A program made the position numbers and the translations under genes. A stretch of 64,000 nucleotides of DNA from Candidatus Palauibacter sp. (GTDB taxonomy: Bacteria > Gemmatimonadota > Gemmatimonadetes > Palauibacterales > Palauibacteraceae): assembly GCF_965213655.1 (NCBI RefSeq), contig NZ_CBDBZT010000003.1:3022307-3086306 (forward strand). Direction: 5' to 3'. Shown in pieces: positions 7,698-36,964 of this stretch. The notes under the pieces are model-generated. The model was not told where the DNA came from. It searched no databases and saw nothing but the letters and a program-made list of their open reading frames with translations. Each line of letters starts with the position of its first letter. The first letter of the stretch is position 1.

Positions 7698-7712
7698 TGG
7701 ATCTCCTTCCGT

Positions 7713-8702: not shown

Positions 8703-8715
8703 GGCCGTCGCGCCC

Positions 8716-16656: not shown

Positions 16657-16868
16657 TGTACAAATTCGAAATCATTCTCTATTGGAGCAACGAGGACGAG
16701 GCTTTCGTCGCGGAGGCTCCCGAGTTGCCCGGGTGCATGGCGTACGGAGACGATCAGGAGAGCGCGTTGGGGAACATCAAGGATGCGATGCAGTTCTGGA
16801 TCGACCGGGCACGGGAGTTGGGACGGCCCGTCCCGGAGCCCAAGGACGATCGTCTCATGCTTGCCTGA
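16656..16868 (+). CDS. hicB: HicB-family antitoxin
   Basis: 70 aa, MYKFEIILYWSNEDEAFVAEAPELPGCMAYGDDQESALGNIKDAM. TGATG overlap with the hicA stop. Confidence 0.7.
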   Translation: MYKFEIILYWSNEDEAFVAEAPELPGCMAYGDDQESALGNIKDAMQFWIDRARELGRPVPEPKDDRLMLA

Positions 16869-17148
16869 CTCGCCTCATGAAACATCCTCCTACTCCTCGG
16901 CCTCGTGCGCGACGCGGGTGGACCTCGACGTCGAGGCAACGCAGCACTTTGGGGAGACGGCGGCGGCGCGGAGGAAACGGAGCCGATCGAGGCCGCCAAC
17001 CGCGATGGTCGAGGCCCAACTCGAATCGGACGCAGCCGCCGAACGGATCACGGAGCACCGCAGAGGCCAAGCGGGAGGCCACGCCGATACAGGCGGGGGC
17101 CCTCCTCCGCCTCGGCGACCGGGCTGCCGTGGGCCGGTCGCTCTCCCC

Positions 17149-21449: not shown

Positions 21450-21999
21450 CGATGTTCCGGCACCGGCGGGGGATCGCAGCGCGGATCTCGGTTTGCTCGT
21501 TGTACGGTTGGCCGCTCACATCGTGCGTCTCAAGCCGGGACCGGCGGCGGCGCTTCGCCGAGGGCCCCTCGAAGGCGAAGGGAGCGCAGCGCTCTGGCAG
21601 TTGATGGCGACCAACGGAATTGAGGGGCGGGGGGATGATCTGCCCAAGTGGGGCACCATCATGCAAGCTATCGCAATACTCACCCCGAGGGGCGGCGACG
21701 ACAGGAAGCGGTCCGCCCACGATGGAAGCAAGCCGATGGGCGCGGTGCTTGCCGAGGCTAACATATCGGAGTTGCGGCTTGCGCGACTCCTTGCGTCGCG
21801 GGGCGAGATGCGCCGGAAGCTAGCTGTCCGCACCTGTCGACGACTCGCCGCCAGTGAATCAGTCAGATTCGATCTGCGCACCCTCGCGAAGTTCATTTTG
21901 TGGGACAACGATGAGAGTCAAGCCCATTGGATCGCCCGTCACTACTATAGGATCCCCGCCAAGGCGAGAGACGCACAACTAGGAGATGCTAGCAAATGA
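21439..21999 (+). CDS. cse2: Cas11/Cse2 (CasB), Cascade small subunit
   Basis: About 186 aa. Alpha-helical and Arg-rich. Sits between cas8e and cas7. Confidence 0.7.
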   Translation: MRPDDVPAPAGDRSADLGLLVVRLAAHIVRLKPGPAAALRRGPLEGEGSAALWQLMATNGIEGRGDDLPKWGTIMQAIAILTPRGGDDRKRSAHDGSKPMGAVLAEANISELRLARLLASRGEMRRKLAVRTCRRLAASESVRFDLRTLAKFILWDNDESQAHWIARHYYRIPAKARDAQLGDASK

Positions 22000-23120
22000 C
22001 GACTTCCCGTTTCCTTCAGATCCACAGCCTCCACGGCTACTCTTCGGTGCTATTGAATCGCGACGATTCCGGGCTGGCAAAGCGCATCGAATACGGTGGG
22101 TGTATGCGTACCCGCATATCGTCGCAGTGTCTCAAGCGGCACTGGCGGGTCGCCGATAGCGTGCATGCGCTCACTGGTATCGACGGTGCCCCCACGGCGA
22201 CTCGCTCGCGCGAGATCGTCACTCTGGAAGTGGTGCGTCCGCTGCGCGAAGCCGAGCACGATGAGGATGTGGTGACCGTGGTGGACAAGGCCTTTCAAAC
22301 CGCCGTGTATGGGGACAGGGGCGACCAGCGTAGCAGCCGTCAGCCGCTCCTCCTGGGCTCGCCGGAGGTCGAATTCCTCGCCAAGGAGGCGAGCCGGATC
22401 GCGGCATTGCCACCGGCGGAGGCGAAGGCTGCCGCAAAGGCTTGGGCAAAGAACTCCCGGGCTAACATGAAGGCGATGAGAGAAGAGTGTCGCCTGCCCG
22501 GCGGACTCGTAGCGGCGCTGTTCGGTCGGATGGTGACGTCTGACGTGGAAGCGAACATCCATGCGGCCGTACACGTTGCCCACGCCTTCACCGTGCACCG
22601 CGAAGAGAGCGAGAGCGATTACTTCACGGTCGTTGACGATCTCCGGCGGATCGAGGATGATCCCGGGGCCGACCACATTGGCGAGACGGAACTCACCAGC
22701 GGTCTCTTCTACGGGTACGTGGTGGTCGACCGTAAAATCCTGCTGAATAATCTGGCCGGGGACATCGAGATGGCGGGGGAGGTCTGTCGACGCCTGATCC
22801 ACCTTATTGCCACGGTGACCCCCGGAGCCAAGTTGGGTTCGACCGCACCCTATGGGTACGCCAGTTGGATGATGGCGGAAGCCGGAGACCGTCAGCCGCG
22901 CAGCCTCGCTGGGGCCTTCCGGCGTCCATGCAGCGCCACCACTCAAGCCGCCGAGAAGGCGTTGAGCGGGCATCTTGCTCGTCTCGACGAGACCTACGAG
23001 ACGGGCGAGGTGAGGAGAGCTTTGAGTCTCAACTGTGCGGCGATGCCCAATGCGGAACTGGTTTCACTAAGCGGGCTCGCGGATTGGGCGGCTGACGTCA
23101 TGGCACGAGGGCAAACGTGA
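21996..23120 (+). CDS. cas7: Cas7e (CasC), Cascade backbone subunit
   Basis: 374 aa, MTTSRFLQIHSLHGYSSVLLNRDDSGLAKRIEYGGCMRTRISSQCLKRHWR. Confidence 0.85.
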   Translation: MTTSRFLQIHSLHGYSSVLLNRDDSGLAKRIEYGGCMRTRISSQCLKRHWRVADSVHALTGIDGAPTATRSREIVTLEVVRPLREAEHDEDVVTVVDKAFQTAVYGDRGDQRSSRQPLLLGSPEVEFLAKEASRIAALPPAEAKAAAKAWAKNSRANMKAMREECRLPGGLVAALFGRMVTSDVEANIHAAVHVAHAFTVHREESESDYFTVVDDLRRIEDDPGADHIGETELTSGLFYGYVVVDRKILLNNLAGDIEMAGEVCRRLIHLIATVTPGAKLGSTAPYGYASWMMAEAGDRQPRSLAGAFRRPCSATTQAAEKALSGHLARLDETYETGEVRRALSLNCAAMPNAELVSLSGLADWAADVMARGQT

Positions 23121-23830
23121 TGCGGTGGTTGCATTTGAGGTTCGAAGCTCCCCTCGCTTCGTTTGGAGGGGAGGCGATTGATGCCCGAGGCGTGATTCGC
23201 GACTTCCCCGCTCAATCCATGCTCACGGGGCTCTTCGCAAACGCCCTCGGCTGGACCCGGGCCATGAAGACGGAGCACCAGGCGCTTCAGGACCGCATCG
23301 TGTTCGCGGCCGCCCACGACGAGAGCCCCGACATTCGGCGTCTTACGGACTACCAAACGGCACAGCTCGGCAAAGCTGACAGGGCTTGGACGACAAGGGG
23401 GACTCCGGTGGGACGTGAGAGCGCTGCCAGTACTCTTGCCGGAGCACACCAGCGCTGGCGGGATTACCATTCGGACCTCCGACTCTCCCTCGTCGTGCGT
23501 CTTGAGCCCGCTGAATCAACCCCGACGCTTGAACAACTCGCGCAGGCTTTGAAACGGCCCGCCCGCCCGCTGTTTCTTGGTCGAAAGCCATGCCTCCCCT
23601 CGACCGCGATGTTCCGTGCTTGGGTGGACGAGGCGGATGCGCACAAGGCACTCAGCGCAGTCCTTCCGGCCGGCAGGGACTACTACGCCATGTGGCCACC
23701 CCCGGAGACGACACGGGGAGTGCACGCGACAAGGCTTGTTGCGGATGAACGAAACTGGGCGAGCGGTCTGCACGGCGGAGCTCGCAGAATCTGTACGGGC
23801 CGCGTGGATGGACGGGAGCGAGTGCGATGA
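23117..23830 (+). CDS. cas5: Cas5e (CasD)
   Basis: 237 aa, MMRWLHLRFEAPLASFGGEAIDARGVIRDFPAQSMLTGLFANALGW. Confidence 0.85.
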   Translation: MMRWLHLRFEAPLASFGGEAIDARGVIRDFPAQSMLTGLFANALGWTRAMKTEHQALQDRIVFAAAHDESPDIRRLTDYQTAQLGKADRAWTTRGTPVGRESAASTLAGAHQRWRDYHSDLRLSLVVRLEPAESTPTLEQLAQALKRPARPLFLGRKPCLPSTAMFRAWVDEADAHKALSAVLPAGRDYYAMWPPPETTRGVHATRLVADERNWASGLHGGARRICTGRVDGRERVR

Positions 23831-24612
23831 CGCACATGGTGTATCTGCCCTACAGCCACGAGGCGTTGGGTCGGTGGAGCGGCGGCAGGCGCTTGATGAG
23901 GCATGGGGTTTTCGATGAAGGATACGCTCTCCACGTTCTCCTGAGCGCCGTCTTCGGAAAGGGCATGCTGCAGCCGTTCCGAACGTTCCGGCCATCGAGA
24001 GGAGAAGGAGGCGCTCTATACGCGTATTCGGACCTAGACCAAGAGGCCCTCTGCGCTGTGGCCGAGGCCGCTGCACCGCCAGACGGCTTGGAAGTGGTGG
24101 ATGTTGCCGAACTCCGAACGAAGCCCATGCCTGACCGTTTCTCGCCCGGCCAACGGTTGGGGTTCGACGTTCGGATTCGCCCGGTGCGGAGACTCGCACG
24201 CGACCTGTCTGACTCGCAGTCGGGTAAAGTGATCCGCAAGGGCAGCGAAATCGACGCCTTCAGGCTGGAGTTGTTGCGCCGGTCCCCAGATGGATGGAAG
24301 GCGTCCGAGGAAGCTCCGGCCGCCCGCGTTTCCCGTGACCATGTCTATGCGGCTTGGCTGGCGGAACGGCTCGCGGGTGCTGCGGAAGTCGACGCTCGGT
24401 CCTTTCGGCTGGCATCTTTCCATCGGCTCCGCGTCATCCGCGGAGATGGGCGGGGTCCCGAAGGGCCGGACTCCGTCGTGCATGGCGACTGTGTCGTCGA
24501 GGACCCTGCCTCGTTCGCCGCCATGCTCGCCAAGGGTGTGGGGAGGCACAGGGCATACGGCTACGGCATGTTGATCATCCGTCCGCCGGGCACGCCTCCC
24601 CGAAGCCGATAG
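23827..24612 (+). CDS. cas6e: Cas6e (CasE) crRNA endoribonuclease
   Basis: 261 aa, Gly-rich C-terminus. Position in the operon. Confidence 0.8.
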   Translation: MTHMVYLPYSHEALGRWSGGRRLMRHGVFDEGYALHVLLSAVFGKGMLQPFRTFRPSRGEGGALYAYSDLDQEALCAVAEAAAPPDGLEVVDVAELRTKPMPDRFSPGQRLGFDVRIRPVRRLARDLSDSQSGKVIRKGSEIDAFRLELLRRSPDGWKASEEAPAARVSRDHVYAAWLAERLAGAAEVDARSFRLASFHRLRVIRGDGRGPEGPDSVVHGDCVVEDPASFAAMLAKGVGRHRAYGYGMLIIRPPGTPPRSR

Positions 24613-24618
24613 CGACTC

Positions 24619-25500
24619 ATGCTGATTGGACGTTTGGGGCTGGATACCGCGCGAATACCGCATGCCGACCGGCACGGGTTACTGTGGCTTGCCCGAGGGA
24701 CACTCACCGTACGAGATGGCACGTTGTCTTTCGAACGGATGGAGAAGGCCTCGTCGGGCGACGCGCTGGAACGGGGACGGTACACCATCCCGTTCCAAGG
24801 TGTCTCGATGATCCTTATGGGCCCCGGTTCGACCGTCAGCCACGATGCCCTTCGACTCCTTGCTCGGCACGGTACCGCTCTCGCGGCTGTCGGGACTGAC
24901 GGAGTTCGAATGTACACCGCCCCGCCGCTGATGTCCGGTCGATCGGGTCTCGCGAGAGTCCAAGCACGCTGCTGGGCGGACGAAGAGGCGCGATTGGACA
25001 TTGCGCGGCACATGTATTCCTGGCGCCTCGGAGAAGTGTTCGCTCACCGCAGTATCTCCGCCCTGCGGGGCATGGAGGGGGCACGTATGAGGGAGACTTA
25101 CCGCCTCATCGCGCAGCAGGTAGGGATTGAGTGGCGCGGGCGCCGTTACGATCGACAGCGGCCGGGGGCCGCCGACCTACCGAATCAAGCGCTAAACCAC
25201 GCCTCAAGCGCGGTGGAGGCCGCTGCGGCCGTCGCTGTGGCTTCCACCGCGACGATCCCTCAACTCGGCTTCATCCATGAGGACGCGAGCCAATCGTTCG
25301 TCCTTGATATCGCCGACCTCTTTCGCGACTCGGTCCTGATTCCGGCCGCTTTTCGCGCGGCAAAGCAGGCTTCTCAAGGGGCGTACGCGAACATCGAGAG
25401 GCTGGCCAGGGAGGAAACGGGCACTACCCTCGCAAGGACCGGGACGATCTCCAAGATGATCACCCGGATCAAACAACTGTTCCCCGACGATGCGGACTGA
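24619..25500 (+). CDS. cas1: Cas1, type I-E integrase
   Basis: 293 aa, MLIGRLGLDTARIPHADRHGLLWLARGTLTVRDGTLSF... Confidence 0.9.
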   Translation: MLIGRLGLDTARIPHADRHGLLWLARGTLTVRDGTLSFERMEKASSGDALERGRYTIPFQGVSMILMGPGSTVSHDALRLLARHGTALAAVGTDGVRMYTAPPLMSGRSGLARVQARCWADEEARLDIARHMYSWRLGEVFAHRSISALRGMEGARMRETYRLIAQQVGIEWRGRRYDRQRPGAADLPNQALNHASSAVEAAAAVAVASTATIPQLGFIHEDASQSFVLDIADLFRDSVLIPAAFRAAKQASQGAYANIERLAREETGTTLARTGTISKMITRIKQLFPDDAD

Positions 25501-25505
25501 GTCAG

Positions 25506-25853
25506 ATGCCGGCGACAGTTGTCGTGACAAGGGATGTTGAAGCTCGGTACCGCGGTTTTCTCGCCTCGGTGATGCTGGAGGTAGCGCCTGGCGTCTATGT
25601 GGGTCCGAACGTCTCCAAAGCGGTCCGTGAGCGGATATGGGGCGTGCTGGCCAAGTGGTTCAGCTTGCTCGGACGTGGAGCCATCACGATGGTACATCCC
25701 GACGCCTCAGCCCCCGGCAAACTCAGAATTTATCAGTTAGGAGACCCCCCAAAGGAGATCTGGGAGGCGGATGGGGTACTATTGGTCAGACATGGTTCGA
25801 CCGACGAGTCCGATCCAACCTTGGACGCGGTGAGCGAACCGCGCCACGAATGA
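25506..25853 (+). CDS. cas2: Cas2, type I-E
   Basis: 115 aa, MPATVVVTRDVEARYRGFLASVMLEVAPGVYVGPN... Confidence 0.85.
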   Translation: MPATVVVTRDVEARYRGFLASVMLEVAPGVYVGPNVSKAVRERIWGVLAKWFSLLGRGAITMVHPDASAPGKLRIYQLGDPPKEIWEADGVLLVRHGSTDESDPTLDAVSEPRHE

Positions 25854-25899
25854 TACGAGAAACACATATAAATACCTTCAGTCGACCTGGAAGTAAAGA
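25854..25899 (+). promoter_or_regulatory. short AT-rich CRISPR leader between cas2 and the first repeat
   Basis: tgatacgagaaacacatataaataccttcagtcgacctggaagtaaagag is strikingly AT-rich for this genome and lies directly between the cas2 stop and repeat 1. Confidence 0.5.
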
Positions 25900-28683
25900 G
25901 GTTCCCCCGCACGGGCGGGGATAGACCGACAGGACGCGGGGCGAGCACGAGATGCCTGGGGGTTCCCCCGCACGGGCGGGGATAGACCGCGTTCACGCGA
26001 GCTTACAGACCGTGGCATCCAGGTTCCCCCGCACGGGCGGGGATAGACCCGTGGACAACCGGATCGCCGATTGGGCGTGTCAGGTTCCCCCGCACGGGCG
26101 GGGATAGACCCCCGGCGTAGCTGACGGCGGTCCCAACCGACACGGTTCCCCCGCACGGGCGGGGATAGACCCTATCGGGGCGAGTTGGCCCGCAGCTACC
26201 GGGTGGTTCCCCCGCACGGGCGGGGATAGACCTACAAGGACCGGCGCGGCGTCTCGAAGTCGGCGGGTTCCCCCGCACGGGCGGGGATAGACCCCGCCCA
26301 GCTCGACGCAGCGGCAGATTGTCCGGGGTTCCCCCGCACGGGCGGGGATAGACCCTCGCGCCACGGCTGGCCTGCATCGACGAACATGGTTCCCCCGCAC
26401 GGGCGGGGATAGACCGCCTGCAACCGACCGACCGACCGCTCTGCCGCTGGTTCCCCCGCACGGGCGGGGATAGACCGCAAGCAGGCATCCCACCCGAGGA
26501 AATGGGCGGGGTTCCCCCGCACGGGCGGGGATAGACCCTCGATGCCGATGCGCTGGCCAAGGCGCTCCACGGTTCCCCCGCACGGGCGGGGATAGACCCG
26601 GAAGTTCGGTGGGACGGGGGCGGCACAGCATGGTTCCCCCGCACGGGCGGGGATAGACCCCCGTTCGACGCAGTGCGCCAGCAACTCCTCCAGGTTCCCC
26701 CGCACGGGCGGGGATAGACCGCCGGATACGGGGTTCGAGGCGCGCGCGAAAGCGGTTCCCCCGCACGGGCGGGGATAGACCCGTAACCGCGACAACCCCA
26801 AGGGGGCATCATGGGGTTCCCCCGCACGGGCGGGGATAGACCCGAGTACCGCTGCGGGACCGCGCCAGCCTCCAGGGTTCCCCCGCACGGGCGGGGATAG
26901 ACCGCCGAAGAAACTCCCACACCAAGTTGCCACGGTGGTTCCCCCGCACGGGCGGGGATAGACCGCTGAACGCCTCGCCGCCGTTGGGCGGGGCCGGGGT
27001 TCCCCCGCACGGGCGGGGATAGACCGACCGGGCATGTGATTCCTTGCGAGCCGACCCGGGTTCCCCCGCACGGGCGGGGATAGACCGCGGCCCGCTACTA
27101 CGGGATCGTCACCGCCGGGGGTTCCCCCGCACGGGCGGGGATAGACCGACTGCACAGAATGCAGGGAGTGCCTGTATTGCGGTTCCCCCGCACGGGCGGG
27201 GATAGACCCGAGGGCGCGTGAGCGTACGCATATTCCAAGGTGGTTCCCCCGCACGGGCGGGGATAGACCGCTGGTAGACCCGCGCACCTACAAGAGCATG
27301 GTGGTTCCCCCGCACGGGCGGGGATAGACCCCGGACGCAGGTTGACCGGCTGTACTCGAAGGTGGTTCCCCCGCACGGGCGGGGATAGACCGGAATCGAC
27401 GGAAGAGCGGATCCGGCGCGAGGCGGTTCCCCCGCACGGGCGGGGATAGACCTTGGGAGTCCGCAAAGGCCGAGATCATACGCGCGGTTCCCCCGCACGG
27501 GCGGGGATAGACCGTCCAAGCTCATCGGGATCGAGGTCGGAGCGACGGTTCCCCCGCACGGGCGGGGATAGACCGAGGTAGCCGGCGGCGAAGGCGAGGA
27601 TGGGCGTGGTTCCCCCGCACGGGCGGGGATAGACCCATCGGGACCGGAGTTCCCCGGCACGAGATCCGGGTTCCCCCGCACGGGCGGGGATAGACCCGCT
27701 GGAAGGAACACTACCGGCGAGACCACGGCGGTTCCCCCGCACGGGCGGGGATAGACCTCCTACCGAACGACTCGGCGCATCCGGTCCCTGGGTTCCCCCG
27801 CACGGGCGGGGATAGACCCGCGCCATCCGCCTGCATGAAGACGCTCGCCGTGGTTCCCCCGCACGGGCGGGGATAGACCCCCGGCAGGACCACGGACGCG
27901 CGTTCCGTGCCGGGTTCCCCCGCACGGGCGGGGATAGACCCCCGATAAGCGCGCTTTGGCTCGCGGCGCTCCGGGTTCCCCCGCACGGGCGGGGATAGAC
28001 CCCCCCCCAGCTGGAGCACCAATTTACCGCTAGCGGGTTCCCCCGCACGGGCGGGGATAGACCGTCGGTGCGTGACGAGCGGAGCAAGGCGTGGCAGGTT
28101 CCCCCGCACGGGCGGGGATAGACCGCGGGCGGCCGGGACGTGGGAGGATGCGGACAAGGTTCCCCCGCACGGGCGGGGATAGACCTCGGGCATAGCTCGA
28201 TCAAGCCCCTCACGGGTTGGTTCCCCCGCACGGGCGGGGATAGACCCGGTCCTCAGGCGGTCGGCTCGGCAGAGTCGTAGGTTCCCCCGCACGGGCGGGG
28301 ATAGACCGTGGGGAATCAAGGTCCAAGGGCAAGCGGGTGAGGTTCCCCCGCACGGGCGGGGATAGACCCTACACGCAGATCAGCCGGAAGCTGGTCGTGA
28401 TGGTTCCCCCGCACGGGCGGGGATAGACCCTCCCCAACGTGCCACACCTGGAGCGTATCGCCGGTTCCCCCGCACGGGCGGGGATAGACCCGTAGTACCG
28501 CCTACACCGCCGACGCTCTGTCCGGTTCCCCCGCACGGGCGGGGATAGACCTCACCACCCGTGCAGGCCCAGCGCCCGACGATTGGTTCCCCCGCACGGG
28601 CGGGGATAGACCCAGCGTATTCCAATCGGCCACTACTTGGGGCAGGGTTCCCCCGCACGGGCGGGGATAGACCGATGATCGGC
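25900..28683 (+). CRISPR. type I-E CRISPR array, about 46 copies of GGTTCCCCCGCACGGGCGGGGATAGACC with spacers of about 32-34 nt
   Basis: Perfect 28-nt repeat at 61-nt period through at least the first 19 units (25900, 25961, 26022, ..., 26998). The last canonical unit is at 28656-28683. The repeat has the I-E stem CCCCGC..GCGGGG and the same orientation as the E. coli I-E repeat. Confidence 0.95.
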
Positions 28684-28746: not shown

Positions 28747-28843
28747 TGAAGTTGCCCCGCTTTCACGGACACCCTTCCATTGGGTCAACCAAGGAGGTGT
28801 GTCGTGGCGGCAAGAGCGGGGTGGTATCCGCGGGAGTACCGGG
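28747..28843 (+). mobile_element. IS3-family left-end fragment (about 97 bp) truncated by the IS21 insertion
   Basis: About 97 bp nearly identical to the left end of the complete IS3 copy at 31649-31745 (tgaagttgccccgctttcacggacaccc..gtgtcgtggcggcaagagcgggg..gagtaccggg). Similarity stops exactly where TGTCAGG of IS21 begins. Confidence 0.6.
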
Positions 28844-28998
28844 TGTCAGGTGATTACCGTGTCGGTAGCGGGTGAAAAAGTGACAGGTATGGCGGCCGAA
28901 AAAGTGACACATCGGTCGTTCCCGTAAGGCCGGGTGGAGCAGCCGCTCCGTCCGGGAACGCAGAACTTGGCGTCTTCCACTTCGAGAGGGAGGCGCCG

Positions 28999-30033
28999 GT
29001 GATCGGATGGGAGCGACGCGTGCTTTTGCGACACTACCTGGACGAAGGACTGACGGTGACGGAGATCTCCCGCGAACTGGGGATCAGCCGTCAGACGATC
29101 TATCGCTGGATCAACGAGGGGGAGCTGGACCGGGACCTCGAGGAGGTCCGCTACGGTCCGCGGCCCCCGGTGCCCACGAAGCTGGATCCGTACAAGGCGA
29201 TCGTGCGGGAGCGGCTTGAGGAGTATCCGGAACTGACGGCGGTCCGGCTGCTGGCGGAGATCCGTGCAGCGGGATACCCCGGCGGCTACACGCAGCTCAG
29301 GGAGTACGTCCGGAAGGTCCGGCCCCGTGCTCCGGCCGACCCTCTCGTGCGGTTCGAGACGGACCCGGGAGTGCAGGGCCAGGTGGACTTCGCCCACTTC
29401 CGCTTCCCGTGGGGCCGCCGCTACCTGCTTCTGGTCGTGCTCGGCTACTCGCGGCTGTTGTGGCTCCGGTTCTACCCGCGGCAGGACATGTCGACGCTGC
29501 TCAAGGGTCTGGAGGCGGCCTTCGGCTTCTTCGGAGGCGTGCCGCGGGAGCTCCTGTTCGACCAGATGAAGAGCGTGATCATCCGGGATCTGAGGGGCGA
29601 GGGCGGCCGCGTGACCGAGAACGCCGAGTTCCTCCGCTTCGCCGCACACTGGGGCTTCCGGCCCAGGGCCTGCCGGCCCTACCGGGCGAAGACGAAGGGG
29701 AAGGTCGAGCGCCCCATCGGCTACGTTCGCAAGAGCTTCACCTACGGTCGCAGCTTCGCCGGCGACGCGGACCTGAACGCGCAGGCCGAGTGGTGGCTCG
29801 GGAGCGTGGCCAACGTCCGGATCCACGGCACCACGCGAGAGCGGCCCGCCGAACGGTTCGAACGCGACGAGCGCCAAGTGCTCAGGCCGCTCGCCCACCG
29901 GCCCTACCACTCGCTCGCGCTGCCCGCCGAACGGGAGCCCGAGAAGGTTCGCCGGCTCGCCTCGGTGCCCCGGGTCACCATCGAACGGCGTCCCCTGGCC
30001 GAGTACGACCGCCTCGCCGCGGGGGTCTCGTGA
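28999..30033 (+). CDS. istA: IS21-family transposase IstA
   Basis: 344 aa with an N-terminal HTH (LTVTEISRELGISRQTIYRWINEG) and a DDE core (..VDFAHFRFPWG..LLVVLGYSRLLW..). Confidence 0.85.
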   Translation: MIGWERRVLLRHYLDEGLTVTEISRELGISRQTIYRWINEGELDRDLEEVRYGPRPPVPTKLDPYKAIVRERLEEYPELTAVRLLAEIRAAGYPGGYTQLREYVRKVRPRAPADPLVRFETDPGVQGQVDFAHFRFPWGRRYLLLVVLGYSRLLWLRFYPRQDMSTLLKGLEAAFGFFGGVPRELLFDQMKSVIIRDLRGEGGRVTENAEFLRFAAHWGFRPRACRPYRAKTKGKVERPIGYVRKSFTYGRSFAGDADLNAQAEWWLGSVANVRIHGTTRERPAERFERDERQVLRPLAHRPYHSLALPAEREPEKVRRLASVPRVTIERRPLAEYDRLAAGVS

Positions 30034-30839
30034 CGCCCGCCAAGCGGCCAAGCCGCCGCGACCGGATCCGTGCCCAGCTCGCCGACCTCAAGCTCCCCGG
30101 CGCGCTCGAGGCCCTCGACCCCATCCTCTCCAGCGTCGACGGAGGCCGCTTCACCGCCGCCGAGGCGATCGAGAAGCTCCTCGCCGCCCAGATCGACCTG
30201 CGCAACAACCGCAGGCTCCAGGCCGCCATGCGCGCCTCCCGGCTCCCAGCCGTGAAGACCCTGGCCGACTTCGACTTCAGCTTCCAGCCCTCGATCAAGC
30301 GCGAGCAGATCGACTCCCTGCACGAACTCTCCTTCCTCGACCGCAAGGAGAACGTCGTCTTCCTCGGGCCCCCGGGCGTCGGGAAGACCCATCTGGCCAT
30401 CTCGCTCGCCGTCGCCACCGCCGAGCGCGGACGGCGCATCTACTACGGCGCCCTGGCCGACCTCATCACCTCTCTCGAGGAGGCACAGGCCGCAGGCCGA
30501 CTCCAGCAACGGCTCAAGGTCCTCACCCACCCGGCCCTGTTGATCGTCGACGAGATCGGATACGTCCCCATCTCGCGCACCGGAGCCACGCTCTTCTTCC
30601 AACTCGTCAACCGGCGCTACGAGACCGGCTCCACCATCCTCACCTCCAACCAGAGCTTCGAGGAGTGGGGCCGCATCTTCGGCGACGAGGTCATGGCCAC
30701 CGCACTGATCGACCGGCTGCTCCACCACTGCCACATCGTCAACATCCGCGGTAACAGCTACCGCATGAGGCAGCACGCCGATGTCTTCAACACCCTCCGC
30801 AACAACCCCTCGACCACGGAGGCCGAGACGTCACCTTGA
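30030..30839 (+). CDS. istB: IS21-family helper ATPase IstB
   Basis: GTG at 30030 overlaps the istA stop (GTGA). Walker A FLGPPGVGKTHLA, Walker B LLIVDEIGY. The 476-aa track ORF is a GC-driven upstream extension. Confidence 0.85.
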   Translation: MTPAKRPSRRDRIRAQLADLKLPGALEALDPILSSVDGGRFTAAEAIEKLLAAQIDLRNNRRLQAAMRASRLPAVKTLADFDFSFQPSIKREQIDSLHELSFLDRKENVVFLGPPGVGKTHLAISLAVATAERGRRIYYGALADLITSLEEAQAAGRLQQRLKVLTHPALLIVDEIGYVPISRTGATLFFQLVNRRYETGSTILTSNQSFEEWGRIFGDEVMATALIDRLLHHCHIVNIRGNSYRMRQHADVFNTLRNNPSTTEAETSP

Positions 30840-30910
30840 GGCTCGTCCCCTCCGGCCGGGTGTCACATTTTCACCCGCCGCATGTGTCACATTTTCGCCC
30901 GCCGTTGACA

Positions 30911-31342
30911 TTACCGTACTTGTACCGACTGTATATCTCCACAAGTCTCGGCTGCACGGCTGCCTATCCGCCTACTGTTCTCTCGATCTGCCAAGGATGC
31001 GGCAGTTATTTCGATGTTTCGATTTGTGTGAGCCGGAGTCCCATAGGCGTGGGGGTTGTAACGATTGATAGGTGTCTGGTTAACAGAAATCTCTAAGGAT
31101 CCATCAAATATGACTGCAGATATTGTCAATACTGAGAACCCTGTCACCATTTCACCCCTCACCGCAGCGCTGGGAGTGCTGGCCGTCAGCTCGTAGCCGG
31201 ATCCGAACAGCACTCTCGCCACGCACTCGATGCTGTCTGGTCGCGCCGCGTAGGACCACTTGGTCGCACCACACCCAGCTATTGCTACTAGCGAGACAAT
31301 CGCGGTCGCCGCCAGTGCTTTTGCTCGCTTCATTTCACCCAC
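30911..31342 (-). CDS. small lipoprotein (143 aa) in a low-GC stretch; its stop lies exactly at the IS21 junction, so it may be C-terminally truncated
   Basis: MGEMKRAKALAATAIVSLVAIAGCGATKW has a lipobox IAGC. GC is lower than the flanks. The TAA stop is formed right after ..GTTGACA. Confidence 0.4.
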   Translation of the reverse strand: MGEMKRAKALAATAIVSLVAIAGCGATKWSYAARPDSIECVARVLFGSGYELTASTPSAAVRGEMVTGFSVLTISAVIFDGSLEISVNQTPINRYNPHAYGTPAHTNRNIEITAASLADRENSRRIGSRAAETCGDIQSVQVR

Positions 31343-31698
31343 TACCGACCTCCGGGCTTAAGGCGTAGATAGGAAGCGCCAGAGTCCACGCATGAAGTCG
31401 TGAGCGAGCAGGTGGCAACAAGAGCCACCCCTAGGTCGTCGTGCGTTCTCCGGGTTCGGGATCCGCTGGCTGAAGAGGAACTGCAAGTCCTGCTAGCTCG
31501 CGGCGGCGAGGGGACCGGGGGACTGCTTCCGGCGTGGACGCGGCCCGATGTCCCTTCGCAACCTCATCCCACTCGTCACACAGGTAAGGTTATCGTGTAC
31601 ACCCGCGCCGCGCCACCTCCGCCACCAGCTTCGCGGGGCTGTCGTCGGGTGGAGTTACCCCGCTTTCACGGACACCTTTCCATTGGGCCAACCAAGGC

Positions 31699-31973
31699 GG
31701 TGTGTCGTGGCGGCAAGAGCGGGGCGGTACCCGCCGGAGTACCGGGAGCGGCTTGTCGAGCTTGCGCAGGCGGGTTGTAGCCCGGGTTTGCTGGCTCGGG
31801 AGTTCGAGCCCTCGGAGCAGACGATCCGGAACTGGGTCCGGCGGGCGGACGTGGACGAGGGGTTCCGTAGCGACGGGCTGACGACGGAGGCGCGCAACGA
31901 ACTGCGGCGCCTGGAGCGTGAGAACAAGCGGCTCAGGATGGAGCGGGACATCCTAAAAAAAGCCGCGGCCTGA
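31699..31973 (+). CDS. IS3-family transposase OrfA (HTH)
   Basis: GTG start, VAARAGRYPPEYRERLVELAQAGCSPGLLAREFEPSEQTIRNWVRRA..LERENKRLRMERDILKKAAA. Ends in the A7G run. Confidence 0.75.
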
Positions 31974-32885
31974 CCACCGCTGCGCGGCGGTGCCCCGCGC
32001 AGGAGAGCGGATCGATCCCCGGCGGGGGTACGCGTTCATGAAGGCGCACCGGGCCGAGTTTCCGCTTCGGGCCATGTGCCGGGTGCTGGGTCTCTCCCCC
32101 AGCGGCTACTACGACTGGCTCAAGCGTCCTGCCTCGGACCGCGCGCGGCGGGACGCGCAACTCGAGGCGCGGATCGGGGCGATCTGGACCGGGAGCGGCG
32201 AGACGTACGGCCGTCCGCGGATCCACGCGACGCTCAGGGCCGAGGGCGAGCGGGTGGGCCAGAAGCGCGTGGGGCGGCTGATGAGGGGCTTGGGGATCGA
32301 GGGCGCGACCAGGCGGCGCTTCAAGACGGCGACGACGAAGAGGGACACCGAGGCCCGGCCCGCGCCGGACCTGGTGAGGCGGGACTTCTCGGCCTCCGGG
32401 CCCGACGAGCTGTGGGTGGCCGACATCACGTATGTGCCCACTTGGGCGGGCTGGCTGTACCTGGCCGTTGTGCTCGACGTCTGGAGCCGTCGCGTCGTCG
32501 GCTGGGCCATGGCGACGCACATGCGGACCGAACTCGTCGAGGCCGCGCTGGCGATGGCCCTCGCGCGCCGTCGTCCCCGGGGGCGCATCGTCCATCACTC
32601 CGACAGGGGCTCGCAGACACTTCTCTCGCCTTCGGGGAGCGCTGCCGCGAGTCGGGCATCGCGCAGTCCATGGGCTCGGCGGGCGACGCGTACGACAACG
32701 CCATGTGCGAGAGCTTCTTCGCGACGCTGGAGTGCGAGCTGATCTGGCGGCGCTCGTTCCGTACTGCGTCCGAGGCCCGGCGAGAGGTGTTCGGCTTCAT
32801 CGAGGGGTTCTACAACACGCGCAGGCTTCACTCGGCCCTCGGCTACGAGTCGCCGGTCAGCTACGAGAGGAACCGTGCGGCCTGA
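31957..32885 (+). pseudogene. IS3-family transposase OrfB (DDE) carrying a 1-nt deletion near 32612
   Basis: N-terminal part through HHSDRGSQ is in the frame of track ORF 31990..32742. The C-terminal part TSLAFGERCRESGIAQSMGSAGDAYDNAMCESFFATLECELIW is in the frame of track ORF 32076..32885. The junction cag-aca-ctt-ctc should read cag-tac-act-tct. Confidence 0.75.
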
Positions 32886-33105
32886 GGCGCACCGCAGGCG
32901 CGCACCCGGAGCCTCTCTCCCGCGTCTGAGAAAGACTGACGGGAACAGCTCCGGAGGTGATCAACCACAGAAGTCAACCGTCCGTGAAAGCGGGACAGCT
33001 CCACGAGTAACGGGCGGCTGTTGGCGGGGGCAGTATCAAAGGCCATCGTCGAGGGGAGCGGAAACGCTGCACCCAGTCGTGCCAGTGTGAGTGAGCGACC
33101 CGGAG

Positions 33106-34080
33106 TCATGAGGTGTGGGTGGTCGGGGAGCCAATGGCTCTAACATATAGGTCCTTATGCGCCAAGATCCGGGTCACTAACCTCTCTCGTAGGTCTTCCA
33201 TGTTTTTCCACATGATGTGGTTGTACTGGCGGGTGTCAAAGTGGGGCTCGGTGCCGTCGCGGCAGCAAAAAATGACCTCAAGCCCCAGGCCGTGAGCGAA
33301 TCCGGCCTCATAGTAGACGCTTCCGCGCGCGCCGTCACTTCCGTGGCTGAAGTCGGCCACCAGAAACCGAGACCGCCGAATCTCCGCGATGACCTTGTTA
33401 TCGATCTGACCTGAGAAGTGCTCCATGTCCACACGGTACGGTCTGTAGCCCGCTTCTTCGATGGCCGGTCTGATCGCTCGGTCGTAGACCTCCTCCATGG
33501 ATTCGTCAAACCACATGGCCACAAACGCTTGCCGCGAATTGACCGATTCGGTCGCGAGTTCGGCGAGATGCCGGTACCCGTCCACCGTGACTCGGCAGAC
33601 GTGGCTATTGGGCTTCAACCGACTGAGCCAGGCCCGCGAAACGAGGTACGCCTCCAAATAGGACAGTTCCGACGCATTGATGCTCTCGGAATGCGCGAGC
33701 GCCTCAAGGCCGTCGTCCTGCGTCGACTGGGATGGAAGTATGTAGTCGTGGCCGAGATGGTCGATCCGACCCGCTATGAATCCGAGAAGCCGTTCTGCGC
33801 GAGTCCACACCGGCAGGTCTTCGCCGTCCTTGGCCCATTGGAGGCGCTTGTCGTCGACCCGAGGCATTTCGTTCCCGCCGTTCCTCTGGTCAACGAGGAA
33901 GGTCGTCAAGCGGGCCTTCCATCTGTCGTCGCAGCTGTCGATCAGCGAGCCGGCGACCGTCCCCGAAATCCAGTATTTCCCGCCGGCTCGCGGAGAATCG
34001 ACTATCCAATTGTCCCCCATGGGAGGATCGAACGCCGCTGCGGTCCCCCAGATCGGACAGCCATCTTGACATGGCATCAC
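33106..34080 (-). CDS. two-domain hypothetical protein; C-terminal domain with an NDT-like/TIR-like (SLOG-fold) signature; candidate defence or toxin-antitoxin component
   Basis: C-terminal region AFVAMWFDESMEEVYDRAIRPAIEEAGY..DNKVIAEIRRSRFLVADFSHGSDGARGSVYYEAGFAHGLGLEVIF follows the FxAxxF .. D..G(T)..E.G.A.G pattern. N-terminal roughly 170 aa is unassigned. Low-GC context. Confidence 0.5.
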   Translation of the reverse strand: MMPCQDGCPIWGTAAAFDPPMGDNWIVDSPRAGGKYWISGTVAGSLIDSCDDRWKARLTTFLVDQRNGGNEMPRVDDKRLQWAKDGEDLPVWTRAERLLGFIAGRIDHLGHDYILPSQSTQDDGLEALAHSESINASELSYLEAYLVSRAWLSRLKPNSHVCRVTVDGYRHLAELATESVNSRQAFVAMWFDESMEEVYDRAIRPAIEEAGYRPYRVDMEHFSGQIDNKVIAEIRRSRFLVADFSHGSDGARGSVYYEAGFAHGLGLEVIFCCRDGTEPHFDTRQYNHIMWKNMEDLRERLVTRILAHKDLYVRAIGSPTTHTS

Positions 34081-34567
34081 GGTGCCTCTCGTGTGACGCT
34101 ACTGTTCTGCTGGTCACATCGGCCACCTTCCCGCTCGGCCGGGTGATCATGGGACGTTCCAGTGCCTCCCGAAAGAACGCCACCGGGGCTGCCAGCATTC
34201 GAACAGTCCGACCGGCGGACCTCCCCCATCTCGACGAGGCCGCGAATCTCATATCTGGCCTTGATCCATTTCATGACCTGGAAGCTGCCGGGCGGAGCCA
34301 GTGCCGGCAATCCCGGTCAACGTCTACAGTGGTGCAGGGGCCGGTCGATCAGCGCGGTGGCCGTGACGCCGAACTCTATCGCGCGAGCCGAACTTGAGTG
34401 TACCCTCTATTCATCATTCATCGTCAGGCGACCCAGCACGGGGCGTGCGTACCGCTCGCACCCGCACGACGGGGGGGTCACGTCGCCTCGACGCTTGCGG
34501 GCCCGGATTTGTGCGACGGGTCCAACCCACGTTAGCATTCGGGTCCGAAAGCCAAGGAGATGAGCGG

Positions 34568-35370: not shown

Positions 35371-35412
35371 TTTGCAAGCAGGAGGTCGTCGGTTCGAATC
35401 CGATCGGCTCCA
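35371..35412 (+). other. 3' remnant of an Ala-type tRNA or tmRNA (T-arm GTCGG-TTCGAAT-CCGAT, acceptor 3' strand CGGCTCC with U70, discriminator A) lacking the 5' half; putative att-site core
   Basis: Canonical T-loop GGTTCGAATCC and 3' acceptor strand. TTTGCAA lies where the anticodon loop (UGC) would be, but no pairing 5' anticodon stem, D-arm or 5' acceptor strand (GG[GA]GCCG) is present upstream. Confidence 0.55.
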
Positions 35413-35490: not shown

Positions 35491-35551
35491 GTGTTGCAAA
35501 CGTGCTAGCATATGTACTGCAATCATGTAGTTGTAAGTGTTGCAATCGTGT
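35491..35551. promoter_or_regulatory. AT-rich promoter region with direct repeats GTGTTGCAA(A/T)CGTG x2 and TACTGCAATCATG
   Basis: 14-bp direct repeats at 35491-35504 and 35538-35551, about 65-125 bp upstream of the GTG start at 35615. Confidence 0.3.
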
Positions 35552-35614
35552 CAATGTGAGAAACCTGTCGCCGTCGGATTACCATGCGCCGACTCGAGTA
35601 GGGAGGATCACACG

Positions 35615-36964
35615 GTGGGCCGTCCCCTGGATATCCCTTCTCGATACGTGGTTCGTGAACGTCCGCCGGAGACGACGGGCGAACTCGGGCCGCGCGAGTA
35701 TTGGCCCAGAGTGGCGGACCGTGAGCTCCGGCAGCGTCTCACCCGATCCGGCGCAGTCCTGATCGAGGGCCCCCGGGCCTGTGGCAAGACGGCCACGGCG
35801 AGGCAGGTAGTGGCCAGCCGCGTGATGCTGGATGCCGACGCTTCCGCCCGTCGAGCCGCCGCCGTCGACCCCGGCTTCCTGCTTCGGGGAGAAGCGCCAC
35901 GTCTCATCGATGAATGGCAGGTCGTCCCTGAAGTCTGGAACCACGTCCGTCACGCCGTCGATGACCGTGCGGGCCGGGGTCACTTCATCCTTACCGGGTC
36001 GGCGGTGCCGCCCGACGACATCACCCGCCATACCGGCGCGGGACGGATCGGCCGCCTGCGTCTCCGTCCGATGTCCCTCCTCGAGTTGAAGCGCTCGACC
36101 GGCGCAGTTGCCCTGTCGAAGCTCCTGGCGGGAAACCCGATCTCCCCCTCCGCAGCTGAGTTGACCGTGGCCGATCTTGCGGCACTAGTTTGCGCGGGGG
36201 GCTGGCCGGGCCACCTGGGCTCGGCGCCCGGTGAGTCGCCGCTCTCCCTCGAGGATGCGATGGCCGAGAATCGCGACTACGTCGGGGAAGTTTGCCGGGT
36301 CGACGTCCGTCGCGTGGATGGGCGCGACAAGGACCCGGCCAGAGTGGGGCGTTTTCTTCAATCGCTGGCGCGGAACGTCTCTACCAATGCGAGCGTGGCG
36401 ACTCTCGTCCGGGACTCGGGCGGCTCCGATCCTCCCCTCGTCAACCATACGGCCGGATCCTACATGAACGCGCTCACGCGCCTGATGGTGGTGGAGGATC
36501 AGCCCCCTTGGGCGCCGCACTTGCGGTCGCGGTCGCGGCTAAGAGTCACGCCCAAACGTCACTTCGTCGATCCCTCGCTAGCCGTCGCGGCCCTGAGTGC
36601 GACCCCCGAACACCTGCTCCACGACTTCGAGTGGTTCGGCTTCCTGTTCGAGTCCATGGTCGTGCGGGACCTGCGCGTATACGCCCAGGCGGCCGAGGCC
36701 CGCGTCTTTCACTACCGCGACAACACGGGATTGGAAGTGGATGCGGTGGTAGACGCCGGACCGGGACGGTGGGCCGCGTTCGAAATCAAGCTCGGCACGG
36801 GCCGCATTGACGATGGCGCGCGGACCCTCCTCAAGTTCGCCGACCGCGTAGATACGGAACGGTGCGGCGAGCCCGCGACGCTTGGGGTGATTGTCGGCAG
36901 TGGGTACGCGTACACCCGTCCGGATGGCGTGGGCGTGATCCCCGTGGGGGCTCTCGGACCGTAG
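35615..36964 (+). CDS. AAA+ ATPase with DUF4143-type C-terminal domain
   Basis: GTG start with a GGGAGGA Shine-Dalgarno 7 nt upstream. Walker A GPRACGKTATARQ, Walker B-like LIDEWQ. Paralog of the gene at 42041..43213. Confidence 0.7.
   Translation: MGRPLDIPSRYVVRERPPETTGELGPREYWPRVADRELRQRLTRSGAVLIEGPRACGKTATARQVVASRVMLDADASARRAAAVDPGFLLRGEAPRLIDEWQVVPEVWNHVRHAVDDRAGRGHFILTGSAVPPDDITRHTGAGRIGRLRLRPMSLLELKRSTGAVALSKLLAGNPISPSAAELTVADLAALVCAGGWPGHLGSAPGESPLSLEDAMAENRDYVGEVCRVDVRRVDGRDKDPARVGRFLQSLARNVSTNASVATLVRDSGGSDPPLVNHTAGSYMNALTRLMVVEDQPPWAPHLRSRSRLRVTPKRHFVDPSLAVAALSATPEHLLHDFEWFGFLFESMVVRDLRVYAQAAEARVFHYRDNTGLEVDAVVDAGPGRWAAFEIKLGTGRIDDGARTLLKFADRVDTERCGEPATLGVIVGSGYAYTRPDGVGVIPVGALGP

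Follow-up and report, generated by a model that had tools for sequence, protein, structure and literature searches.

The window, i.e. the whole stretch of 64,000 nucleotides analysed here, carries on its minus strand an open reading frame of 324 codons at 33106..34080, where the sequence-only reading had placed it. The ORF as listed mechanically begins with a GTG at 34080. The alignments of all homologs begin one codon further inside, with the ATG, and therefore the likely coding sequence is 33106..34077 (minus strand), which encodes a two-module protein of 323 aa. Residue numbers given here are counted from the GTG, not from the ATG. A Shine–Dalgarno-like motif, GAGAGG, is found 7 nt upstream of the CDS start. 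The ORF is a genuine, intact gene and not a chance ORF of GC-rich DNA, because homologs are retrieved with best E-values of 1e-207 to 1e-77, the GC content of its codon positions (0.60/0.45/0.74) follows a coding-type pattern, and comparison with a 96%-identical copy gives a dN/dS of 0.44, a value based on only 36 substitutions. The gene had also been described as much lower in GC than its surroundings. Its GC content is indeed below that of the window (0.599 vs 0.676), but the difference is moderate and not dramatic.

About 100 bp downstream of the stop codon, at 33003, we find the end of an IS3-family element that carries inverted repeats of 24 bp, in agreement with the insertion sequence reported earlier. 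The surroundings in the window comprise IS elements and a DUF4143 ATPase, and the gene adjoins a PADLOC candidate, PDC-S01 (E=1e-64). A type I-E CRISPR array is located at 26022-28429, about 4.7 kb from the gene, and a Cas7 gene is also present in the window. Of the proposed defence neighbourhood, CRISPR-Cas is confirmed; hicAB, named as part of it, was not found by ORF and motif scans, which were non-exhaustive. The suggested tRNA-like remnant can be seen by eye as a 32-nt T-arm/acceptor-like stretch at 35381-35412, but it is called neither by ARAGORN nor by Rfam. An Rfam scan of the window and of the upstream region gives no match, and a promoter and terminator scan finds nothing convincing.

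A blastn comparison with the genome of a 93%-identical homolog shows only one stretch of the window in common, 33005..34329 (minus strand), with 95.9% nucleotide identity. It comprises the gene with 250 bp of upstream and 100 bp of downstream sequence, and its 3' side is cut by the IS3 end at 33003. Relatives at 83–96% nucleotide identity have only the gene and a leader of 45–250 nt in common, and their surroundings are unrelated. What moves between genomes is this single gene. According to the blastn boundaries and the alignment, a leader of about 60 nt (34078..34140, minus strand) travels with it in these relatives. The leader includes the Shine–Dalgarno motif and an imperfect palindrome, TGTGAC..GTCACA; its predicted RNA fold is no better than that of shuffled sequence (z=0.06). 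A small ORF at 34077-34310 overlaps the start codon of the gene (TGATG). It was considered as a hidden partner and rejected, since its conservation extends only to the 96%-identical copy and not to the 83–87% relatives.

The C-terminal module (aa 181-310; 33151..33540, minus strand) is an NDT/MilB-like, TIR-related domain and a putative N-glycosidase effector. It adopts a five-stranded flavodoxin-like fold whose nearest structures are NDT, MilB and DNPH1 (Rcl), and structure comparison also finds the fold TIR-like. The motifs FVAMWFDE, RFLVADFSHGSDGARG and YYEAGFAHGLGLEVIF, quoted in the sequence-only reading as NDT- or TIR-like, are all found in the translation. This kinship is borne out by the fold and by a PADLOC HMM match, but the label SLOG is not supported, as in the fold comparison the nearest class is not SLOG/LOG. 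Within a Y-Y-E-A-G motif (33301-33315) lies E258 (codon 33307..33309, minus strand), invariant in 103 of 103 sequences. In the model it sits at the start of the helix after strand 3 (helix 254-264, following strand 239-243). Its position would correspond to the catalytic nucleophile of NDT and to the catalytic Glu of TIR, and from motif and topology we take it as the likely equivalent of NDT E98. The same 103 sequences, at about 47% identity, show R252, Y256/Y257, H280-F-D282, N287 and W291 to be, like E258, invariant or nearly so. The fold class, the invariant Glu and the NDT-type motifs are established. With NDT, MilB/BlsM and DNPH1, the best structural matches, the domain shares the [FY]xA[GM]WF motif of strand 1 and the Glu that starts the third helix. 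Its N-x-[IM]-x-W motif resembles the NLMSW motif (N123) of Lactobacillus leichmannii NDT. Two differences are observed. The known enzymes are stand-alone metabolic proteins of about 150 aa, whereas the present domain is fused to an N-module of 180 aa, and an invariant Arg, R252, is found where NDT has D92.

The only PADLOC match of the window protein is the CBASS 'Effector TIR' model PDLC00733 (E=4.7e-12, aa 145-300), with only the C-terminal ~160 of 388 profile positions aligned, and ten relatives likewise match this model alone. PF05014 is hit at 14.5 bits (E=0.039, aa 221-278), under its gathering threshold of 28.8 bits. Sisters with 38–43% identity over the domain pass it at 31.7–32.7 bits, and membership of the window protein in the PF05014 superfamily is assigned by transitivity only. 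None of the TIR-type Pfam models is matched by the window protein at E up to 10; the sisters' matches to PF10137 and PF13271 are sub-threshold (E 0.09–0.23). Neither the single sequence nor the family profile has a significant match among solved structures, and hhalign of the family profile against single NDT and DNPH1 sequences yields only uninformative probabilities below 5%. An NCBIfam scan of the window protein gives no match.

The N-terminal half (aa 1-180) had been described as unlike anything recognisable, and yet a degenerate zinc ribbon and a MarR-like winged helix are identified in it. The zinc-ribbon-like beta element (aa 1-45; 33946..34077, minus strand) is defined by the AF2 model, in which it forms three short beta strands, and by the sister alignment. 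It contains the invariant stretches C8-P-I-W11 and S29-P-R31-A-G-G34-x-Y36. These conserved residues line up with the CPxC...CxxCG knuckles of sisters that retain all four cysteines and have weak zinc-ribbon Pfam matches. It is followed by a helical linker (aa 46-118; 33727..33945, minus strand; AF2 secondary structure and column conservation) with conserved K55-A-R-L-T, W/F61-L, Q65-R66 and R94-A-D/E-R-L-L99. The MarR-like winged helix-turn-helix occupies aa 119-180 (33541..33726, minus strand). It is acidic, with a median pI of 4.8 across the family (5.6 for the whole N-domain), and its recognition helix and wing are devoid of any conserved basic residue. Across phyla the N-terminal parts are 38–47% identical, against a mean of 71% for the C-terminal domain.

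A phmmer search with aa 1-179 retrieves 731 cluster representatives. Among the best 149 of these 731, the NDT-like domain is present in 71 and a different C-terminus in 10. The alternative C-termini include a CAP12/Pycsar TIR domain (PF10137, E=3e-39; PADLOC PDC-S35, 1e-76), TIR_2 (PDC-S66, 4.5e-60), SEFIR (bSEFIR, 1.6e-66), Abi_C HEPN (AbiJ, 8e-15) and a PDC-S05-like domain. Siblings with such swapped effectors (P0124, P0135, P0193, P0194, P0211 and P0223) are retrieved by the N-module at E-values of 1e-24 to 1e-15. Conversely, intact zinc-ribbon N-termini precede the same NDT-like domain in proteins of prophages and Bacillus plasmids. The two-module architecture, with an N-module that is joined elsewhere to other immune effectors, is established. 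Some members of the bSEFIR, AbiJ, PDC-S35, PDC-S66 and PDC-S05 groups thus share the N-module CPIWGT..DSPRAGG..KARLTTWL.. followed by the winged helix, with phmmer E-values down to 1e-24. These siblings and the window protein each consist of one polypeptide of about 320–390 aa, in which a non-catalytic module at the N-terminus precedes an effector that is, or in the window protein would be, toxic or NAD-directed. They differ in the effector, which is SEFIR, HEPN (Abi_C), canonical TIR or CAP12/Pycsar TIR in the siblings and NDT/MilB-like in the window protein. A similar concept was put forward by Anantharaman et al. (2013), who predicted fusions of AbiJ-NTD1 to nucleoside deoxyribosyltransferase domains to be abortive-infection proteins and described a non-catalytic NTD common to AbiJ-type HEPN proteins and to NDT, TIR and nuclease effectors. 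One of our siblings, in which the N-module precedes Abi_C, follows the same plan. By description, however, NTD1 is mostly helical and about 140 aa long, whereas the present N-module has about 180 aa and a beta zinc-ribbon remnant, and none of the Pfam AbiJ_NTD models is matched.

The CAP12/Pycsar TIR domain of some siblings and the CBASS model as sole PADLOC match of the C-terminal domain could also speak for a signal-activated effector, whose N-module would be the receptor of a nucleotide second messenger that a cyclase or TIR protein produces, as in CBASS, Pycsar and Thoeris, the synthase having been lost or being encoded elsewhere. We consider this quite unlikely. No cyclase, CD-NTase or ThsB-like gene recurs as a neighbour in the 80 related loci that were surveyed, and neither a CD-NTase nor any other CBASS gene is found near the gene in the window or in these loci. 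The N-module has no CARF, SAVED, STING or cNMP-binding fold match, and closely related copies move as a single gene. Furthermore, the siblings match the PADLOC single-gene candidates PDC-S35, PDC-S66 and bSEFIR, plus AbiJ, not multi-gene signalling systems.

The protein had been called an orphan; in fact it belongs to a family of more than 6,500 homologous protein clusters. Full-length relatives are found in at least 576 species of many phyla and are especially common in Chloroflexota and in marine and sponge-associated lineages. An exact-sequence lookup of the window protein in the contig collection gives no match. PADLOC v2 holds no dedicated model for the NDT-bearing architecture. In the literature we found no experimental work on any member of the family and no characterised single-gene defence system that combines a winged helix or zinc ribbon with NDT. 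Homologs are named 'nucleoside 2-deoxyribosyltransferase' in some sources. Salvage enzymes are among the members of the NDT family, and this, together with the name and the MarR-like winged helix, would fit a housekeeping or regulatory role, either as a nucleoside or nucleotide salvage enzyme or as a MarR-type transcription factor with a nucleoside-sensing NDT-like domain. Such a role is very unlikely in our view. The distribution of the family is patchy, and members are carried on plasmids, prophages and integrative islands and have a GC content under that of the host. Their surroundings vary and include no genes of nucleotide metabolism. The DNA-reading surface of the acidic winged helix is not conserved. 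In addition, the N-module is common to AbiJ, bSEFIR and TIR effectors.

Neighbourhoods were compared in the 80 related loci, with neighbour ORFs called by a crude in-house procedure. No partner gene is conserved among them, as already suspected for the window, and the most frequent neighbour family reaches no more than 9 of the 80. Restriction-modification operons of type I, II or III enclose the gene in at least 13 of these loci and in one closer relative. In at least 8 Chloroflexota loci hsdS and hsdR flank it, and stop and start codons often overlap; in 4–5 alphaproteobacterial loci the order is Res-Mod-gene-UvrD/GajB-like helicase; and an 82%-identical relative comes after Dcm-REase-Vsr. 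The nearest neighbours are rich in Pfam families of restriction-modification and defence, and genes more than 7 kb away are metabolic. Neighbours matching PADLOC candidates include PDC-M24B besides the PDC-S01 of the window. Further homologs adjoin an integrase and a relaxase, MqsA and ParDE, or nSTAND3, AAA_15 and a resolvase. No recognisable defence operon encloses the gene in about 80% of the surveyed loci.

That the gene recurs within restriction-modification operons of type I, II (Dcm-Vsr) and III would also fit another activity, that of a restriction-like glycosylase or modified-nucleotide hydrolase. It would strip hypermodified phage DNA of bases or hydrolyse modified nucleotides specific to phages, for example hydroxymethyl-dCMP, and would serve as a non-suicidal back-up of restriction-modification against restriction-evading phages. 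An action of NDT fusions on DNA has been proposed by Anantharaman et al. We regard this as rather unlikely. The N-module is interchangeable with respect to TIR, SEFIR and HEPN effectors of toxin type, and these swaps point to a triggered toxic activity and not to a substrate-specific, housekeeping-like hydrolase. The acidic winged helix without conserved basic residues, within an N-domain of median pI 5.6, is also unlike a DNA-binding glycosylase. A related possibility, likewise unlikely, is that the NDT/MilB-like domain would be a hydrolase or glycosylase against phage-specific modified nucleotides or DNA (e.g. hydroxymethyl-pyrimidine nucleotides) and not a suicide NADase. It would have been recruited repeatedly by restriction-modification operons against phages that escape by base modification, and the N-module would recognise the phage modification machinery.

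PsyrA-type antitoxins are NDT-like, and a UvrD-like helicase gene follows directly after the gene in 5–6 alphaproteobacterial loci. Both observations would fit a stranded antitoxin, the option raised in the sequence-only reading, here of a PsyrTA/ShosTA-like pair whose helicase-like or PRTase-like toxin has since been lost; we consider it highly improbable. Neither the protein nor the helicase matches a PADLOC model of PsyrA, PsyrT or ShosTA, and the UvrD-like neighbour instead resembles the GajB or NERD+UvrD models and is found in fewer than 10% of the loci. No RecQ-like toxin gene adjoins the gene, no toxin partner is conserved in the 80 loci, and the gene travels singly. The catalytic-type residues are invariant across phyla, which would be unexpected for a mere toxin binder, and without a partner the gene is intact and evolves under purifying selection.

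Among characterised defence proteins, the type II retron effectors (Ec86/Eco1 N-glycosidase and Sen2 RcaT) are close in parts. They are anti-phage proteins that are reported to cleave NAD(P)+ or to deplete adenine nucleotides and are active as dimers or filaments, and their parts, an NDT-like domain with a catalytic Glu and a winged helix, are also found, the Glu being putatively catalytic, in the window protein. A type II retron effector bereft of its reverse transcriptase and msr/msd would have this composition. The order of the parts is reversed, however, as in the retron effectors the NDT-like lobe precedes the winged helix. No reverse-transcriptase ORF is found within 5 kb in the window, and no RT family recurs in the 80 loci. 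Furthermore, no PADLOC retron model is matched and no structured RNA is detected upstream. We consider a retron origin extremely improbable. Swarozyc and Evangelion are akin to the window protein as single-gene defence proteins that combine a TIR/NDT-related NADase with an HTH or winged domain. In these DUF4062 TIR-like NADases, of which Swarozyc is an example, this auxiliary domain binds a phage structural protein, the portal, and thereby turns the enzyme on. Their catalytic domain is N-terminal and of DUF4062 type (PF13271), whereas the window protein has no match to this family and its sisters reach an E-value of only about 0.1. Retron, CBASS, PsyrTA, SLOG and DUF4062 were all tried as identities and rejected, since each fails in a defining feature.

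Relatives are often found in restriction-modification operons, in prophages and on mobile islands, and thus a stand-alone anti-phage suicide or defence protein is the most likely identity. A single-gene defence or abortive-infection candidate had been suggested before, and fold, HMM match, neighbourhoods and domain swaps support it, the function itself being predicted. The gene probably encodes a self-contained sensor-effector abortive-infection protein, in which one polypeptide would detect the infection and cleave an N-glycosidic bond. We infer its catalytic activity, substrate, trigger, autoinhibition and anti-phage phenotype as follows. In the resting state the N-module (aa 1-180) probably holds the enzyme inactive. 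It would most likely recognise a phage-derived cue, with protein being likelier than DNA. NDT and TIR enzymes dimerise or form larger assemblies, and activation would probably take place in the same manner. In the activated enzyme the invariant E258 would attack the N-glycosidic bond of an essential phosphate-bearing nucleotide, with NAD(P)+ or a (deoxy)nucleotide as the first candidates. Draining of this pool would stop phage replication or the growth of the infected cell.

If this prediction is true, the family would represent an additional widespread single-gene anti-phage system, with an NDT-type N-glycosidase as its effector. To our knowledge, NDT-type N-glycosidases are so far known in defence only as type II retron effectors. 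The natural swaps of the N-module among NDT-like, TIR, SEFIR and HEPN effectors could show whether phage specificity follows the sensor, and the N-module could help to find the trigger of those bSEFIR-, AbiJ- and PDC-S35-type proteins that bear it. Its repeated occurrence within restriction-modification operons of types I, II and III would make the gene a marker for further accessory defence genes.

The window copy, it should be noted, departs from the consensus at two positions with at least 97% conservation, and both changes (K/R225->Q and D228->N) are unique to it. Because of them it may be attenuated. Its 93%-identical relative retains the consensus at both 225 and 228.

The most informative result of our analysis is domain swapping around the N-module (aa 1-180) of the two-module protein, in which an NDT-like C-terminal domain (aa 181-310) follows. 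A HMMER search with aa 1-179 over the full set of 1.84 billion cluster representatives gave 731 matches at E<=0.001. Among the best 149 of these, 71 carry the NDT-like domain, 68 are truncated just past the N-module and 10 have another C-terminus. By Pfam, the alternative C-termini are CAP12/Pycsar TIR (PF10137, 3e-39), TIR_2 (1e-19 to 1e-23), SEFIR (6e-17) and Abi_C (8e-22); in PADLOC they match the phage-defence candidate models PDC-S35 (1e-76), PDC-S66 (4.5e-60) and PDC-S05 (3e-18) as well as bSEFIR (1.6e-66) and AbiJ (8e-15). Thus, one N-module is coupled to various recognised or candidate immune effectors, and the NDT-like domain is predicted to fill the slot of the toxic effector. Conversely, other N-termini also precede the NDT-like domain, and in Streptococcus prophages it forms the N-terminal part of a lysogeny-module protein. 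Such ~220-aa proteins, with a coiled-coil-like tail behind the NDT-like N-terminus, are found in Streptococcus phage SM1 (gp11, locus L090) and 16 other Streptococcus/Dorea prophages. Their genes lie in the lysogeny/early region, antisense to the neighbouring genes, and the proteins give the top match among all tested proteins to PDLC00733, the PADLOC CBASS 'Effector TIR' model (2e-17). Another relative, P0122 (332 aa), carries N-module residues 1 to ~110 twice in tandem (CPIWGT..DSPxxGGKY..KLTDWL..) without a recognisable effector domain.

The best-supported model is a predicted single-polypeptide sensor-effector protein. The N-module would sense a phage cue, after which the NDT-like domain would cut an essential nucleotide at an N-glycosidic bond. 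This type of logic has support from three published analogies. In the TIR-like NADase Swarozyc, the phage portal is bound by the HTH/winged auxiliary domain. The effector of retron Ec86/Eco1, which hydrolyses NAD(P)+ or depletes adenine nucleotides, likewise consists of an NDT-like domain and a winged helix, but in the opposite order. Furthermore, NTD-NDT fusions were predicted as abortive-infection proteins in 2013. We predict that the gene is an uncharacterised, widespread variant among modular single-protein abortive-infection effectors of the TIR/NDT class; in our incomplete coverage of the literature, no paper on the N-module plus NDT-like architecture was found. The defence role proposed in the sequence-only reading is supported by comparative evidence; its other proposal, a stranded antitoxin, is not.

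The same reading had assigned the C-terminal domain to the SLOG fold, a label that found no support. The sole Pfam match of this domain is PF05014 (NDT) at 14.5 bits, below the threshold of 28.8, which is passed by sister proteins with 38-43% identity in the domain. The single PADLOC match of the query is PDLC00733 (E=4.7e-12), PHROG 16139 (function unknown) matches at 7e-35, and NCBIfam gave no match. Across phyla, mean pairwise identity is 71% in the C-terminal domain versus 38-47% in the N-terminal segments. Invariant or near-invariant residues include F186-x-A-M-W-F-D192, D227/D228, D243, R252, Y256-Y257-E258-A-G260, H280-F-D282, N287 and W291. In an AlphaFold2 model built on 103 sequences (mean pLDDT 84), the helix that follows strand 3 has E258 at its start; from motif and topology we infer that it would take the position of the NDT nucleophile and of the TIR catalytic Glu. 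The active site is surrounded by the invariant arginines R216, R236, R238, R252 and R284, and their number suggests a phosphate-bearing substrate. At aa 225-228 (33397-33408) the window copy reads Q-I-D-N versus K/R-I-D-D in 102 of 103 relatives. Both Q225 and N228 are unique to it, at positions at least 97% conserved; R and D are retained in the 93%-identical relative. With these changes the window copy may be attenuated and catalytically weakened.

The first 45 residues of the N-module are modelled as three short strands. In alignments with relatives from prophages and Bacillus plasmids, which have an intact four-cysteine zinc ribbon, C8-P-I-W11 and S29-P-R-A-G-G fall on its CPxC and CxxCG knuckles, and one intermediate protein retains all four cysteines. 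Therefore, the N-module consists of a degenerate zinc ribbon, a helical linker and a winged helix. Conserved basic residues are missing from both the recognition helix and the wing, and with a median pI of 4.8 the region is acidic, which argues that the winged helix is probably a protein-contact or assembly part rather than a classical DNA binder.

The ORF is found on the minus strand at 33106-34080 (324 codons counted from GTG). Since the alignment of every homolog begins at the ATG one codon inside this GTG, the likely CDS is 33106-34077, with 323 aa; GAGAGG, a Shine-Dalgarno-like motif, lies 7 nt upstream. Codon-position GC (0.60/0.45/0.74), the homologs (best E=1e-207) and a dN/dS of 0.44 against a 96%-identical copy show that this is a genuine gene rather than an ORF arising by chance in GC-rich DNA. 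Its GC is 0.599 versus 0.676 for the window. The motifs quoted previously are present in the translation and the earlier observation is largely right. The gene is no orphan, however, as had been claimed: more than 6,510 protein clusters match at E<=0.001 in a word-seeded HMMER search, and a pattern scan that took a single genome for each species found relatives in at least 576 species. Among the 120 matches listed, nearly all are full-length (~47% identity over ~93% of the query) and nearly all unnamed; conservation covers both protein halves jointly. Carriers include Chloroflexota/Dehalococcoidia, Latescibacterota, Alpha- and Gammaproteobacteria, Acidobacteria, Poribacteria, Dadabacteria, Thermodesulfobacteriota and Rhodothermales; many genomes are metagenome-assembled, with names suggesting marine or sponge origin. 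A subfamily of 390-430 aa (P0016, P0088 and ~15 others) has an extra ~70-aa N-terminal extension, ..WYHPVHA..GWVDNPAKIGVN.WG.., before the CPIW motif.

Crude in-house ORF calls around 80 homolog-bearing loci were clustered, and no neighbour family occurs in more than 9 of the 80. There is therefore no obligate partner. Most of the surveyed loci lie outside any obvious defence operon. Among 117 immediate neighbours, Pfam families are mostly of restriction-modification or defence types (Methylase_S 6, UvrD 6, Polbeta 5, N6_N4_Mtase 4, ResIII 3, HSDR_N 2, AAA_21 2, HerA 2); for 124 control genes at distances above 7 kb, the families are metabolic. In at least 8 Chloroflexota loci, a type I restriction-modification operon carries the gene between its hsdS and hsdR, often with overlapping stop and start codons and with a HEPN/MNT pair and a Schlafen-like gene alongside. 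Such operons in Dehalococcoidia (L014, L026, L036, L047, L052, L081, L083, L087) are miniature defence islands, whose embedded accessory genes encode a HEPN protein, HsdS fused to an MNT/Polbeta nucleotidyltransferase domain, a Schlafen/AlbA_2-like protein, a PDC-M24B-like product (L036, E=7e-80) and a Fic protein. The order Res-Mod-gene-UvrD/GajB-like helicase is seen in 4 or 5 alphaproteobacterial loci. In the alphaproteobacterial loci L024, L046, L054, L059 and L077 (~7000-13100 each) the gene is followed 4-6 nt on by a UvrD-like helicase of ~700 aa with an extra N-terminal domain (GajB-like or NERD+UvrD in PADLOC, E ~1e-24); type III Res and Mod precede the gene in all of these except L059. 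This may be a clade-specific multi-gene module. An 82%-identical relative comes after Dcm methylase, a putative endonuclease and Vsr. Further homologs adjoin integrase and relaxase, MqsA and ParDE, or nSTAND3, AAA_15 and resolvase, and some are on plasmids and viral contigs.

The window and the genome with the 93%-identical protein have only 33005-34329 in common (95.9% nt identity), and relatives at 83-87% nt identity share the gene plus a 45-60 nt leader and nothing more. The conserved upstream part is the last ~60 nt (34078-34140), whose imperfect palindrome may be part of an operator or promoter. A small upstream ORF (34077-34310, minus strand, 65-77 codons) overlaps the gene start by TGATG and has an in-frame 3-nt indel against the 96% copy; it was rejected as a partner, being conserved only in this closest copy and not in the 83-87% relatives. 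The nearest intact upstream neighbour is an AAA_14 + DUF4143 ATPase (35537-36964, plus strand, 475 aa; PDC-S01, E=1.2e-64), whose family (cluster 9) is also present at 5 of the 80 related loci. Between the two, a 32-nt segment (35381-35412, plus strand, GGAGGTCGTCGGTTCGAATCCGATCGGCTCCA) resembles a tRNA T-arm with 3' acceptor strand. Neither ARAGORN nor Rfam calls it, and it occurs only once in the window; an integrative element may once have used it as its attachment site. On the other side, the gene is flanked by an IS3-family element (31650-33003) with 24-bp terminal inverted repeats (TGGAG..CCCGCTTTCACGGAC). A type I-E CRISPR-Cas locus (16783-28429) ends ~4.7 kb from the gene, beyond an IS21 element (istA 28999-30033, istB ~30030-30839). 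It includes a Cas3-sized ORF (16783-19791), a Cas7/CT1975 gene (21996-23120, Pfam 6.5e-92), Cas1- and Cas2-sized ORFs and an array of ~40 repeats (26022-28429, GGTTCCCCCGCACGGGCGGGGATAGACC, period 61). Between IS21 and IS3, a low-GC ORF (30911-31342, minus strand, 143 aa, GC 0.55) with a signal of lipoprotein type (..AIAGCG..) has no match in Pfam or PADLOC. A third, solo copy of the IS3 24-bp repeat is found at 28747-28770, just before the IS21 element, and suggests that insertions in the interval separating the CRISPR array from the gene (28747-33003) were nested or rearranged.
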